Of a DNA stretch of 4,733 bases, positions 1 to 4,353 are shown piece after piece (position 1 is the first letter of the stretch; the number at the start of each line of letters is the position of its first letter). The stretch is from a virus. Lineage: Duplodnaviria; Heunggongvirae; Uroviricota; Caudoviricetes. The notes beneath the pieces were generated by a model that was not told the origin of the DNA, searched no databases, and saw only the letters and a program-made list of their open reading frames with translations. The DNA lies in IMG/VR virus record IMGVR_UViG_648276653_000008. One strand, 5' to 3'. The position numbers and the translations under genes are program-made.

Positions 1-1971
1 GGTCAGACGGAGCAGGAAGCTCACGCCCTTCACCACCTTCGGCGTGTCCCAGCGCGCCAGCACCTGATATTCCCCGCTGTCTGCGGTGACTTCGGCAGTC
101 AGGTGCTGCACCGCTGGCGGCGTGACACCATTCACCGTGCCGCTCTGGTCGCCGTCAAAGTGCGCCCCGTTATCCACGATGGCTTCTTTTTCCGGTACAT
201 GCTGCACGGCGGTGATGGCATACGTGCCGTCGTCGTTCTCACGGATACTCACGCAGCGGAACAGGCGCTGGCGCAGCGTCGGCAGCTTCAGCCCCCACAC
301 GCTGTATTCAGCAACGCCGTCAGGAACACGGCTCACTTTCACCTTCACGCCGTCGGTGACGGACTGAACCTCCACGCTGACCGGATTGCCACTTCCGTCA
401 ACCAGGCTTATCAGCGTGGTACCGGAGGATGGCAGCGTGATTTCACGGTCGAGCGTCAGTGTCCGCGTCTGGCTGTTCACTGCCAGCACACGCCCACCGA
501 TGCTGATCCCCGCATAGTCATCATCGCAGATTTCAATGACATCGCCCGGTACATGGCGAAGCCCTTCAGCACCCACGCTGAAGTCCACGGTCTGCGTTTC
601 CAGCAGTTCTGTTTTAATCAGCCACAGCCCGGCTCGGTGTGCCTGCCCCCGGCTGGTACAGCCAAAGGCATCCATCTTCGTGACGTTACGACCGTAACGG
701 GCAATGGCCTGCGTGTCCTCCACAAGCTCTGTTGCCGTCTCCCAGCCGTTGTTCGGGTCAATCCAGTTCACCTCAACGGCATTATGGCGGTCCTTCAGGG
801 CGCTGAAGCTGTAGCGGAACGGCGCGCCATCATCCGGCATCACCACATTACTGCGGTTATAGGTCCACACCTTATCTGATGGTCGGTCCTGCACGAACGT
901 CAGCGTCTGCCCGTTCCATACCGGCATACAGCGCATCGCCGAGCAGAAATCACTGAGAACATCCCACGCCTTACGCTGTGTGGTCAGGTACGCATTACAG
1001 GTGATGCGCGGCTCCGTGCCGCCAAAACCGTCCGGCACCGACTGGTCGCAACACTGGCCGATGACATACAGCGCCCATTTATCCACATCTGCCGCACCAA
1101 GACGTTTACCCATGCCGTAGCGCGGGTGGGTCAGCATATCCCACAGACACCAGGCCATGTTGTTGCTGTATGCTGGCTTAAACGTTCCGTCCCAGATACC
1201 GCTGTATTGCCGCGTCTGCGGGTTATAGTTCGACGGCACCTGCAGAATACGCCCGCGAAGATGATAATTACGGCTCACCTGCTGGCTGCCGAACTGCTCC
1301 GAATCCACCTGTACGCCGACCAGTGCCGTGTTCGGGTAGCACTGTTTCACATCGATGATTTCGGTGTATGACGACCAGAGCGTTTTGTTCTGCAGCTGGT
1401 CTGTGGTGCTGTCCGGCGTCATCCTGCGCATCCGGATGTTGAACGGGCGCGGCGGCAGATTATCCACCACTACCGAGGCCAGATACTGCGAGGTGGTTTT
1501 GCCCTTAATGGTGATGTCTTTTTCCGTCACCCAGCCACCGTTACGTTGTATCTGAACCAGCAGGCGAACTTCCGACGGATTCCTGTCCCCCTTTGAGGTG
1601 GTTTCCACCAGTGCCTGCACACCGAAGGTAAAGCGCAGACGGTCAATGTTTGCAGACGTAATGGTGCGGGTGATCGGCGTGTCATATTTCACTTCCGTAC
1701 CCAGCACCGTCTCGGAGCCGGAGGATTCAAATCCCTCCGGCGGTGACTGCTCCTGCTCACCGGCCCGGAACACCACCGTGACGCCGGATATATTGGTATT
1801 CCCCTCACTGTCCAGCACCGGCGTACTGTTCAGCAGCACGCTTTTTAATCCATCCACCGGACCTTCAACCGGCCCTTCACTGATGGCGTCTATCACGCTC
1901 AGCATCTGGGATGATTTCAGGTTGTCCTTCGCTTCGCGCGGGGTATGCCCCTTACTGCTGCCTTTACCCAT
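1..1971 (-). CDS. J: Host specificity / central tail fibre protein J, N-terminal 657 codons (5'-partial in window; gene continues beyond position 1)
   Basis: Minus-strand ATG at 1971..1969; frame stays open to position 1 with no stop (consistent with no complete minus ORF in the track here). My translation starts MGKGSSKGHTPREAKDN and at the window edge reads LARWDTPKVVKGVSFLLRLT, which I recognise as lambda gpJ. Sits directly downstream of I, as in lambda. Confidence 0.93.
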   Translation of the reverse strand, partial: MGKGSSKGHTPREAKDNLKSSQMLSVIDAISEGPVEGPVDGLKSVLLNSTPVLDSEGNTNISGVTVVFRAGEQEQSPPEGFESSGSETVLGTEVKYDTPITRTITSANIDRLRFTFGVQALVETTSKGDRNPSEVRLLVQIQRNGGWVTEKDITIKGKTTSQYLASVVVDNLPPRPFNIRMRRMTPDSTTDQLQNKTLWSSYTEIIDVKQCYPNTALVGVQVDSEQFGSQQVSRNYHLRGRILQVPSNYNPQTRQYSGIWDGTFKPAYSNNMAWCLWDMLTHPRYGMGKRLGAADVDKWALYVIGQCCDQSVPDGFGGTEPRITCNAYLTTQRKAWDVLSDFCSAMRCMPVWNGQTLTFVQDRPSDKVWTYNRSNVVMPDDGAPFRYSFSALKDRHNAVEVNWIDPNNGWETATELVEDTQAIARYGRNVTKMDAFGCTSRGQAHRAGLWLIKTELLETQTVDFSVGAEGLRHVPGDVIEICDDDYAGISIGGRVLAVNSQTRTLTLDREITLPSSGTTLISLVDGSGNPVSVEVQSVTDGVKVKVSRVPDGVAEYSVWGLKLPTLRQRLFRCVSIRENDDGTYAITAVQHVPEKEAIVDNGAHFDGDQSGTVNGVTPPAVQHLTAEVTADSGEYQVLARWDTPKVVKGVSFLLRLT

Positions 1972-1993
1972 TCCTCACGCTCCAGAAACGACA

Positions 1994-2013
1994 AAACCGC
2001 CCTGAGGCGGTTT
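1994..2013 (-). terminator. Stem-loop in the I-J intergenic spacer (8-bp stem, 4-nt loop) followed by a U-rich tract on the minus-strand transcript; candidate intrinsic terminator or mRNA-stabilising hairpin
   Basis: Minus strand reads AAACCGCC-TCAG-GGCGGTTT then TGTCGTTTCT: a perfect inverted repeat (plus 1994..2001 pairs with 2006..2013) with a U-rich 3' flank, between the I stop (2032..2034) and the J ATG (1971). Structure seen directly; function inferred. Confidence 0.35.
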
Positions 2014-2031
2014 CACATAAAACGTTTTGCA

Positions 2032-2679
2032 TCAGCGACCAATCACCACAACCTGACCACCGTCCCCTTCGTCTGCCGTGCTGATCTCCTGAGAAGCCAC
2101 CCGCGACCCCACGCGCATTTCACCGTACAGAACGGGCAGAACATTGCCCTGGGCAACCATGTTATCCAGTGAGGAGAAATAGGTGTTCTGCTTACCGTTA
2201 TCCGTTGTCTGTGTACGGGGAGTTCTGGCTTTCGGTGCCAGCATCTGCGCCACACCGCCAAGGATCATACTGGCCCCCGCAGCATACATGCCCGATAAAG
2301 CCGCAGCTCCCAGCCAGCCTGCAGGGTTCCACCACGCCACTGCAATCAGCGCCGCACCCAGCACCGCCTGAAACACACCGCCACTTTTGGCTCCTGCCAG
2401 ACGCGGCACGATATGGATCACAGCACCATTTGCCAGCGGTTCATTAAGACGGGCTGATAATTCATTTTCGCCTGCATCACGCCCGGCAATGCGCACCTGA
2501 TACCAGCCCTCATTCAGTTTCTGGCGAAACGACGGAAGCTGCGTGGCCAGCGCCCGGATGGCTTCGGCCCCCGTTTTCACACGAAGGTCGATGCGGCGGC
2601 CAAATCGTTGTAAATCCCCGTAAAGGCAGATGCGTGCCATGCCCGGTGACGCCAGAGGGAGTGTGTGCGTCGCTGCCAT
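2032..2679 (-). CDS. I: Tail tip assembly protein I (215 aa, stop included)
   Basis: Track ORF 2032..2679 (-), MAATHTLPLASPGMARICLYGDLQRFGRRIDLRVKTGAEAIRALA..., ending GDGGQVVVIGR; recognised as lambda gpI family. Its 5' end overlaps the 3' end of K by 103 nt in another frame, as in lambda. SD-like GAGAGG at 2691..2696. Confidence 0.9.
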   Translation of the reverse strand: MAATHTLPLASPGMARICLYGDLQRFGRRIDLRVKTGAEAIRALATQLPSFRQKLNEGWYQVRIAGRDAGENELSARLNEPLANGAVIHIVPRLAGAKSGGVFQAVLGAALIAVAWWNPAGWLGAAALSGMYAAGASMILGGVAQMLAPKARTPRTQTTDNGKQNTYFSSLDNMVAQGNVLPVLYGEMRVGSRVASQEISTADEGDGGQVVVIGR

Positions 2680-3320
2680 TTGTCTGTATACCTCTCTCGT
2701 TTGCTCAGTTGTTCAGGAATATGGTGCAGCAGCTCGCCGTCGCCACAGTAAATGGCGGCATGATTCGGCACCGATGAACCAAAACAGCACAGCAGCACGT
2801 CGCCAGGCTGCGCCTCTGTCAGTGGGACACGGTAAAAACCCGTTGCCTCCATATTGTCAAGATAGAGATTCTGACCGTGACGCCACCAGTCATCCTCGCG
2901 ATGAAAATCCGGCATCTCAATCCCCGCCAGATGATAAGCATCCCGGAACAGCGTGTAACAGTCCGTCACCCCGTGCTCAAAGCGCCGCCCGGTGAGATGC
3001 GGCACACAGCGGAACTTATGAATCGTCCCCCGGCAGACCAGCCACCACGGCAAATCACTCTGCACCTGCAGCCGCCGGTCGGCCTCACTCAGCCAGGGCA
3101 GACCACCGGGGTGGCTGTGGACCAGCGCCACAATCTCACCCTGCATTTCTGCCTGCAGCCAGTCTTCCGGCGACATACGGAAATACGCCTCCGGCTCACC
3201 GGAGATATTCACGCAGGGGAAATATCTTTCCCCCTCCGGCGTGCTTACCACGAAGCCGCACGACTCCGCTGGCGCACATCGCCGGGCGTGCGCCAGAATC
3301 GCTGATTCTGTCTGTGTCAT
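2577..3320 (-). CDS. K: Tail tip assembly protein K, JAB/MPN plus NlpC/P60 two-domain protein (247 aa from first ATG; alternative internal start at 3176 gives 199 aa)
   Basis: Track ORF 2577..3320 (-). Contains JAMM-like motif H68-S-H70-x7-S78-x2-D81 (VHSHPGGLPWLSEAD) and an NlpC/P60-like Cys (TDCYTLF, C121) with downstream His residues (NHAAIY, ELLHHI). Recognised as lambda gpK. First ATG lies 5 nt after the L stop. Confidence 0.88.
   Translation of the reverse strand: MTQTESAILAHARRCAPAESCGFVVSTPEGERYFPCVNISGEPEAYFRMSPEDWLQAEMQGEIVALVHSHPGGLPWLSEADRRLQVQSDLPWWLVCRGTIHKFRCVPHLTGRRFEHGVTDCYTLFRDAYHLAGIEMPDFHREDDWWRHGQNLYLDNMEATGFYRVPLTEAQPGDVLLCCFGSSVPNHAAIYCGDGELLHHIPEQLSKRERYTDKWQRRTHSLWRHRAWHASAFTGIYNDLAAASTFV
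3188..3192 (-). promoter_or_regulatory. Shine-Dalgarno (GGAGG) upstream of the internal K Met49 ATG at 3176
   Basis: Minus strand reads GCCGGAGGCGTATTTCCGTATG; GGAGG is the complement of plus cctcc at 3188..3192, with an 11-nt spacer. The first K ATG at 3320 has no comparable SD. Confidence 0.4.
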
Positions 3321-3325
3321 GGGAT

Positions 3326-4024
3326 TTACTGCGAAAGTTTGTTAATGGAAAGGAAGCCGCCAAAGTTGCCGACGTTATTGCGGAACTTACAACCGCTCAG
3401 GCATTTGCTGCATTTATCCTTCGTGATATCGGACGTCGGCTGGTCATATTCATCCGCGACTGCCGGACCGTGATAACCGCACTCATCACCGCGATAGGTC
3501 CAGGTGCAGGTGTTGGCCAGCATGATACGTCCCGGAAAAACAGCACCGTCCGTTTCCGTCGGCGTGGACAGTACAAAAGAGGCACTCACCGCGCTCAGTT
3601 CGCTGCACTGCTCAATGCGCCAGCGGCTGATCACCTCCTGCTCCGGATCGGCGTCACTGTTTCCGTTGACGAAGTTCACCGCATCCAGAAAACGGGCGTA
3701 AACCTTACGCCGGACCACCGTTCCGCCGACCAGACTCTGCAGATCTTCCGCCATCCCGGTGACCATACCGTACAGGTTAGAAACCGTCAGCGTGGGGCGC
3801 GTACTGGTGCCTTTGCCATTCAGTTCAAAACCACTCCCCTGAATGGGATACGGCTGATACTGTCGCCCCTGCCAGGTGACCGGCTCACCTTTTTCGTTCT
3901 GCTCATTACAGAAAAAATAACGTTCTCCACCGACCTCTGTCAGATCGATTTCCCAGAGCACCACGCTGGCCGACTGCTCCGCACGGGTGCATTCATTCAG
4001 TGTTTCCTGCCGGATATCCTGCAT
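3326..4024 (-). CDS. L: Tail tip protein L (232 aa, stop included)
   Basis: Track ORF 3326..4024 (-), MQDIRQETLNECTRAEQSASVVLWEIDLTEVGGERYFFCNEQ...; length and sequence match my recollection of lambda gpL. C-terminal Cys cluster (C173, C182, C205, C208, C212). Start overlaps the M stop (TGATG). Confidence 0.93.
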   Translation of the reverse strand: MQDIRQETLNECTRAEQSASVVLWEIDLTEVGGERYFFCNEQNEKGEPVTWQGRQYQPYPIQGSGFELNGKGTSTRPTLTVSNLYGMVTGMAEDLQSLVGGTVVRRKVYARFLDAVNFVNGNSDADPEQEVISRWRIEQCSELSAVSASFVLSTPTETDGAVFPGRIMLANTCTWTYRGDECGYHGPAVADEYDQPTSDITKDKCSKCLSGCKFRNNVGNFGGFLSINKLSQ

Positions 4025-4353
4025 CAGTTCACCACCTGTTTAAACTCTGCGCTGAACTCAACACGCAACATACTGACCTGCGACGACCATTTTGCGCAGG
4101 TCACCTTTATCTGCCTGTAACCATAAGGCGGCGTCCACAGAAAGGCCTTCCAGCCCCCGTGCTCAGCCAGAAACGACTCCAGCGCCGTGGCCTCCTCACG
4201 GGAGACAGACAGCGTCACGCTGTACGTTTTCAGGTCAGCGTTCAGCCCGGCAGGCGCACGCTGGGAATAGCCATCACCAAAGCGCACCTCCCTGACGGAA
4301 GGAGCAGATGTCACATCCATCCCGGGTTTCACTTTCCAGCGGAAGGTTTTCAT
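4024..4353 (-). CDS. M: Tail tip protein M (109 aa, stop included)
   Basis: Track ORF 4024..4353 (-), MKTFRWKVKPGMDVTSAPSVREVRFGDGYSQRAPAGLNADLKTYSV...; 109 aa as in lambda gpM. Strong SD GGAGG (plus 4360..4364) 6 nt upstream of the ATG. The ATG overlaps the H stop (ATGA). Confidence 0.92.
   Translation of the reverse strand: MKTFRWKVKPGMDVTSAPSVREVRFGDGYSQRAPAGLNADLKTYSVTLSVSREEATALESFLAEHGGWKAFLWTPPYGYRQIKVTCAKWSSQVSMLRVEFSAEFKQVVN
4029..4037 (-). promoter_or_regulatory. Shine-Dalgarno-like element for L (AGGTGGTGA), inside the 3' end of M
   Basis: Minus strand reads AACAGGTGGTGAACTGATG; one mismatch to the extended SD AGGAGGTGA, 4-nt spacer. Confidence 0.4.

Follow-up and report, generated by a model that had tools for sequence, protein, structure and literature searches.

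The I-J junction of a lambda-type tail-tip module

The window—the whole stretch of 4,733 nucleotides that we analysed—carries on its minus strand a tail-tip module of the lambda type, in which the end of H is followed by M, L, K, I, and the start of J. From the list of open reading frames, M occupies positions 4353..4024, L 4024..3326, and K 3320..2577, with K showing matches to the JAB and NlpC/P60 domains of Pfam. Gene I (2032..2679, minus strand) encodes tail tip assembly protein I of 215 aa; it matches the Pfam family Lambda_tail_I (E = 1.3e-23), is named I in the records of homologous phages, and stops at a TGA at 2034..2032. Gene J, for the tail tip or host specificity protein, begins with an ATG at 1971..1969 and runs off the window, which holds its 5' part (1..1971).

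The M/L, L/K, and K/I junctions abut or overlap; the 60-nt spacer between I and J (1972..2031, minus strand) is thus the sole real intergenic gap in the window, as a preliminary description of this DNA had stated. A gap of the same 60 nt separates the two genes in lambda and phage 434, where I ends at 15444 and J starts at 15505. Megablast of the window returned 271 phage records, the best of which are lambda-like (mEp332, 434, 21, and lambda variants) at 93-96% identity, and the gene order is the same in these best relatives.

Two observations on the neighbouring genes may be recorded here. K and I have 103 nt in common, read in different frames (2577..2679), as they do in lambda (K to 14875, I from 14773). 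Against most lambda-type phages the window aligns in two pieces that cover 96% of it, and its gene I, at 215 aa, differs in length from the 223 aa of lambda and 434; part of I, somewhere in 2032..2679, seems to be a divergent segment resembling mEp332, and this segment may mark a mosaic boundary inside the gene.

A terminator-type hairpin ahead of J

The spacer contains a hairpin with an 8-bp stem and a 4-nt loop (1994..2013, minus strand), composed of the 5' arm AAACCGCC (2013..2006), the loop UCAG (2005..2002), and the 3' arm GGCGGUUU (2001..1994); written as DNA on the minus strand it reads AAACCGCC-TCAG-GGCGGTTT. The G+C core runs into an interrupted U-rich tract, UUUUGUCGUUU (1986..1996, minus strand), whose first three U are base-paired to AAA in the 5' arm. 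The hairpin is non-coding, has the orientation of the genes M, L, K, I, and J, and ends 22 nt before the start codon of J, just upstream of a GGAG ribosome-binding site for that gene. Read in the opposite orientation, the stem is followed only by UUUCACAU. The preliminary description had recognized here the architecture of an intrinsic terminator oriented with the operon, and its coordinates for the spacer, the hairpin, and a nearby palindrome, along with its minus-strand string, all prove correct.

Five of the eight stem pairs are G-C. The stem energy is -12.6 kcal/mol in the window and -13.6 in lambda, similar to the values for the hairpins of the trpL attenuator (-13.4) and lambda t0 (-14.7); in a 361-nt context the pairs form with probabilities of 0.955-1.0. 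The tract UUUUGUCGUUU provides five U in the eight nucleotides after the G+C core, and variants of it among relatives read UUUUAUCGUUU, UUUUGUCAUUU, and UUUUUUUU. Because the tract is interrupted (UUUUGUCG), the efficiency of any termination may be modest. When the window was scanned with a simple rule for terminators, the hairpin was not called, since this rule lets the stem grow through G.T pairs and leaves only four T in the next eight bases; the three hits that the scan did list all lie inside coding sequence and are at chance level (3 found, 3.8 expected). A search of Rfam at a permissive threshold gave no family match—the best scores were 10.7-14.8 bits, against gathering scores of 34-55.

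The same element is present in lambda and 434 at 15466..15485, and GenBank records of 434 and two other phages annotate it. The record of phage 434 (OL657226.1), whose coordinates here are those of lambda, places a 'terminator' at 15466..15485 and a ribosome-binding site at 15493..15496, between I (14773..15444) and J (from 15505). The record of phage 21 (OL657228.1) has a 'terminator' at the homologous site (15649..15673) and that of Ayreon does likewise, the annotation in these three phages being a database prediction and not an experimental result; an analogous site is labelled 'terminator' in HK75 and in Klebsiella phage KLB28. The I-J hairpin is, in short, an already annotated feature of lambda-like phages.

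Considered as one sequence, the hairpin is not exceptional. It is the only perfect stem in the 4733 bases with at least 8 bp, at least five G/C, and a loop of 3-8 nt, but dinucleotide shuffles hold 0.9 +/- 1.6 such stems on the two strands together and 31% of them reach the observed count, while the fold of 86 nt around it has a z-score of -1.25. A single sequence therefore proves nothing about the hairpin, and its significance comes from position, orientation, and conservation.

The palindrome and the Shine-Dalgarno sequence of J

Two further features of the spacer had been singled out in the preliminary description. The first, a perfect 10-bp palindrome, AAAACGTTTT, is present at 2019..2028, but it is no more than a chance feature: the window holds two ten-bp palindromes against 5.3 +/- 2.4 in shuffles, and the motif is polymorphic, being perfect in 44 of 235 related loci (19%), most of which read AAAATGTTTT instead. 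It is missing from the spacers of Gifsy-1 and Fels-1 (Salmonella) and of Citrobacter, all of which have the hairpin.

The second feature was a Shine-Dalgarno sequence, GAGGA, placed unusually close to the J start. GAGGA does abut the ATG (1972..1976, minus strand); however, this pentamer varies among relatives (GAGGA in 127 loci, GACGA in 86, other sequences in 22), lambda and 434 have GACGA beside the J ATG, and it is not the functional Shine-Dalgarno sequence. The probable one is GGAG, 8 nt before the ATG (1980..1983, minus strand), which is invariant across 112 haplotypes, is found in 221 of the 235 loci, and is annotated as the ribosome-binding site in the records of 434 and 21. With the conserved motif at this normal spacing, the apparent oddity vanishes. 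We also considered an extended helix, given by the minimum-free-energy fold, in which the U run of the palindrome pairs with the J Shine-Dalgarno sequence; it was rejected, as many loci place C opposite A or A opposite C (C opposite A in at least nine).

Conservation and selection on the stem

The 96-nt junction occurs in 2233 of 5426 complete E. coli genomes (about 41%), at 3170 places in all. Loci for comparison were gathered blind to the hairpin, with the 3' end of I and the N-terminus of J as anchors, and diversity was computed over 195 loci of lambda-type spacing that represent 112 haplotypes. Across these haplotypes, the loop has a per-site diversity of 0.171, against 0.011-0.020 for the stem arms; the 8 nt that follow the stem give 0.083, and what is left of the spacer gives 0.085. 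The coding sequences on either side give a scale for these values: third codon positions have a diversity of 0.166 in I and 0.116 in J, and first and second positions 0.029. The stem arms thus vary as little as non-synonymous sites do, and the loop as freely as synonymous ones, which shows that purifying selection acts on the pairing of the hairpin and not on its loop.

The variants themselves follow the same division. The loop reads TCCG in 119 loci, TGCG in 89, TCAG in 23, and otherwise in a few, whereas all of the rare stem variants retain pairing: AAATCGCC, AAACCGCT, and GGTGG substitute G.U pairs, and two loci (L211 and L219) carry a double compensatory change, GAGCCGCC/GGCGGCTT, that turns an A-U pair into a G-C pair. 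In Citrobacter and in Fels-1 the first 450 nt of J share just 65-66% identity with the window, and the spacer upstream has an unrelated sequence; despite this divergence of J, the block AACCGCC-N4-GGCGGTTTTGTCGTTT is identical outside the loop. Absence of the inverted repeat from close relatives had been named beforehand as a finding that would speak against a role; the hairpin is kept in essentially all lambda-type relatives.

Three loci in E. coli or Shigella chromosomes (L045, L046, and L047) belong to decaying prophages with frameshifted I and J, and their hairpins have several substitutions (for example GGGACCGCC...GGCGGCTGTG), which is consistent with relaxed selection in defective prophages. 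A scan of viral contigs for distant relatives of J found near-identical lambda-type loci only. A near-identical lambda J (97% protein identity) also appears on short, low-coverage contigs labelled Neobacillus, Kitasatospora, Chromatium, Bradyrhizobium, Shewanella, and others (L010-L030, among others); these are almost certainly lambda DNA contamination and not real prophages.

Unrelated hairpins at the same junction in other lineages

A tblastn search with the first 150 aa of J against a phage collection found J homologues in 1388 phage records, and we read the I-J junction in a spread of these. Nine other phage lineages have, between their homologues of I and J, a G+C-rich hairpin that leads into a U run, with unrelated sequences: the PP6/Stx type, the IMG/VR locus L166, KLB28 (Klebsiella), Ulliraptor (a Serratia phage), mEp213, HK75 (E. 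coli), the T1-like phage ISF002, Acinetobacter phage TCUAN1, and Pseudomonas phage PP9W2. The hairpin of the PP6/Stx-type E. coli prophages, for instance, is CAGGCACC...GGTGCCTG followed by UUGUUUUU, and that of L166, in a gap of 636 nt, is AUGCGCC-UGCG-GGCGCAU followed by UUUUUAUAUU. J-proximal hairpins of unrelated sequence thus span lambda, T1-like, Klebsiella, Serratia, Acinetobacter, and Pseudomonas phages.

A strict rule requires a perfect stem of at least 6 bp with at least four G/C and then at least five T in eight. Of the 11 gaps that measure 40 nt or more, 9 score under this rule, where shuffles reach at most 0.003 per gap; the two gaps that it misses fold as terminators in RNAfold. 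Among the junctions read, the hairpin is absent only where I and J overlap or lie less than 25 nt apart, as in phiE125, KS9, Seuss, Amona, Diencephalon, phiPMW, and a Zophobihabitans prophage. In the gap of ISF002, a Shigella phage, a strong terminator (AACCCGCC...GCGGGTT plus T8; L257 391-467) is followed by a TATAAT-like hexamer before J, an arrangement which suggests a true transcript boundary with re-initiation.

The gap as an insertion site for accessory genes

In several phages the I-J gap is not limited to a short spacer—it is an insertion hotspot for accessory genes, among them the small RNA PasB and the superoxide dismutase SodC. PasB is an Hfq-dependent prophage sRNA of EPEC E2348/69, and the papers that describe it place it only as embedded among phage structural genes (PMC8550237, with table S6; bioRxiv 10.64898/2026.05.13.724894). 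We find it in the lambda-like prophage PP6 of that strain, in an I-J gap of 240 nt and antisense to the tail operon (NC_011601, 1466343 to 1466261, minus strand; L171 862-944), between the end of I at 1466255 and the start of J at 1466496. The PasB terminator lies directly against the I stop, and the sense hairpin is still present beside J; the Stx2 phage Stx2_499 and JLK-2012 have the same layout. PasB also lies in the I-J gap of L006 (at about 160-250) and of L259 (at about 675-760).

In a Citrobacter prophage and in Fels-1 (Salmonella), the insert is a reverse-oriented gene for Cu/Zn superoxide dismutase (Pfam Sod_Cu, E = 8.7e-35; L037 about 950-1480, L005 1-307). It lies between I and the J-proximal hairpin, and the hairpin that stays beside J in these two SodC loci is of the lambda type. 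Other inserts are less easily named. The 636-nt gap of L166 holds, on the reverse complement, an AT-rich insert with several hairpins preceded by A runs and no convincing ORF, and these hairpins may be reverse-strand terminators or small RNAs; different AT-rich inserts are found at about 1390-1490 in L211 and about 1250-1345 in L219, the loci that carry the compensatory stem variant. A comparable situation has been described in P22-like phages, where the 'ant moron' region, just 5' of the tailspike gene, holds variable accessory genes (PMC2629481).

The gap of the window carries no such cargo: its 60 nt contain no ORF and no promoter-like site that would indicate a moron or sRNA gene. We considered it as a PasB-like sRNA locus and rejected this, given its length (60 nt against 240 nt) and its different sequence.

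Proposed role and alternative explanations

What lies directly ahead of the J ribosome-binding site is a stable, selected, terminator-shaped sense RNA hairpin. Our preferred reading, to which we give a probability of roughly 60%, is that it acts as a Rho-independent terminator that stops unmodified RNA polymerase, is read through by polymerase modified by Q, and then persists as a stable stem-loop in the late mRNA. In this proposal, polymerase without the late antiterminator Q would terminate at the hairpin, whether the transcription is leaky, belongs to the prophage state, or comes from accessory genes inserted in the gap; because unmodified polymerase would be stopped there, J and the genes downstream would be expressed from the programmed late transcript only. 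Q-modified polymerase starting at pR' would pass the hairpin during the late phase; lambda polymerase modified by Q reads through intrinsic terminators. Q and pR' lie outside the window, so antitermination is here assumed from homology. Within the polycistronic late mRNA the hairpin would remain as a stable stem-loop that can block 3'-to-5' exonucleases, and the decay of the long J segment could in this way be uncoupled from that of the H-M-L-K-I segment.

It is also possible that residual termination lowers J relative to the upstream genes. A full-text literature search returned no 3'-end mapping, read-through, or half-life data for the I-J site of the lambda late transcript. Late mRNA is reportedly roughly uniform along the operon, with translation setting the protein ratios, in the work of Ray and Pearson in 1974-75 and of Sampson et al. 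in 1988; such uniformity argues against strong attenuation in lytic growth.

The most serious competitor, which we consider unlikely but worth keeping in view, is that the selected function of the hairpin is purely post-transcriptional: it would act on the late mRNA as a barrier to decay or as a boundary for processing, and termination would play no meaningful part. It could stall 3' exonucleases once the J segment is cut, and cleavage of the AU-rich spacer upstream by RNase E could leave J mRNA with a 5' stem-loop that protects it. The hairpin is very stable in its 361-nt context, the spacer directly 5' of it is indeed AU-rich and single-stranded (AUGCAAAACGUUUUAUGUGAAA), and where accessory genes are inserted the hairpin is always beside J and never beside I. 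That Q-modified polymerase would ignore the hairpin as a terminator, which is established knowledge, also favours a role in the RNA. The hairpin is kept, moreover, in the T1-like phage ISF002 (family Drexlerviridae), where Q-type control is not expected and whose group we take to be virulent; its presence there means that insulation in lysogens is not the sole selective reason for it, and keeps an explanation by decay barrier or operon boundary alive. However, a decay barrier needs no U-rich tract, yet the hairpin of every lineage has one, in the sense orientation. The preliminary description had mentioned an RNase processing site as well; as a site for RNase III this is unlikely because the stem is too short, having 8 bp and reaching 13 pairs only with G.U pairs and a bulge, where the criterion for that enzyme is about 20 bp or more of dsRNA.

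More tentatively still, and as a generalization that we think rather unlikely to hold in full, the tail modules of siphophages may have, in the sense hairpin 5' of J, a conserved boundary element. It would set the transcript and decay boundary for the receptor-binding gene and also act as a protected landing pad, where cargo could enter after the I stop and ahead of the hairpin while J expression stays undisturbed, and it would insulate J from cargo-driven transcription in lysogens.

The recurrence of inserts could also be read in another manner, in which the hairpin is mainly a conserved linker at a module boundary, kept for the homology that it offers to recombination events by which J, the host-range gene, is exchanged or accessory genes come in, or is the leftover terminator of an ancient insertion. 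The 26-nt island of identity within flanks that have diverged by 34% is what such a linker might look like, the gap is a hotspot (PasB in the PP6/Stx type, SodC in Fels-1 and Citrobacter, other inserts in L166 and L211/L219), and the P22-like phages have their analogous variable region just 5' of the tailspike gene (PMC2629481). But a linker predicts constraint on sequence, and the constraint observed is on pairing, with a free loop, a compensated stem, and different stems in other lineages; in addition, 26 nt is short for homologous recombination, and the lambda-type spacer is too small for a gene or promoter. We regard this explanation as improbable.

J is the only gene here whose translation is not coupled to that of its upstream neighbour, and the hairpin might then be a translational insulator which keeps the J ribosome-binding site free of long-range pairing; it ends 10 nt before the GGAG motif and this spacing is conserved. 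When the 5' arm was disrupted in silico, however, the predicted accessibility of the region from GGAG to AUG stayed essentially the same (unpaired probabilities of 0.82/0.76/0.82/0.47 for the intact stem, 0.68/0.83/0.91/0.45 for the disrupted one). Consistent covariation is also lacking for the alternative helix in which the U run of the palindrome pairs with the Shine-Dalgarno sequence, given the loci with C opposite A, and the hairpin of ISF002 lies about 50 nt from the J start, all of which makes an insulator very unlikely. Finally, a chance inverted repeat without function would fit the shuffles and the fold z-score of the single sequence, but is effectively refuted by the comparative data, that is by the pattern of conservation, the compensatory change in the stem, the island of identity, and independent recurrence at this junction in about 10 lineages.

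As an element, the hairpin matters little—a predicted terminator was known at this site in close relatives, and read-through by Q is textbook knowledge. What the comparative data add is that they turn a terminator prediction into a clearly selected RNA structure. The hairpin is a cheap and well-defined target for studying what internal terminators do in antiterminated operons, be it insulation, dosage, or mRNA stability, and a recurrent site for lysogenic-conversion cargo (PasB, SodC) at the I-J junction helps to annotate prophages and to locate their cargo.

Comparison with known systems

The closest counterparts are the homologous sites of lambda, 434, 21, and Ayreon, which share with the window the stem and U tract, the distance to J, and the 60-nt spacer. 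Compared with 434, the window differs in its loop (UCAG instead of UCCG) and in three or four other single-nucleotide positions of the spacer.

The PasB locus of PP6 shares with the window only the J-proximal sense hairpin, and this by analogy; the 60-nt gap of the window is without PasB sequence. Further removed is the ant moron region of the P22-like phages, which, like the I-J gap, carries varying inserts in different phages (PMC2629481); in contrast, that region belongs to another phage type and other genes, and the site in the window is empty but for the hairpin.

Within the late operon itself, the 434 record has terminators in the other real gaps too: D-E, J-lom, lom-stf, and after tfa. 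These predicted terminators of lambda and 434 resemble that of I-J in that each fills one of the few real gaps of the operon. Those at J-lom and lom-stf flank the known accessory gene lom, whereas the one at I-J flanks none in lambda-type phages.

Among the classical intrinsic terminators that antiterminated polymerase reads through are tR', tR2, and t0 of lambda. Like the I-J hairpin, they have a U-rich tract behind a G+C-rich stem-loop whose energy is similar, and they stand in a transcription unit known to be governed by processive antitermination. The I-J hairpin, a predicted terminator, differs from these three in that its U tract is interrupted (UUUUGUCGUUU) and in that it lies inside an operon, directly before an essential gene.
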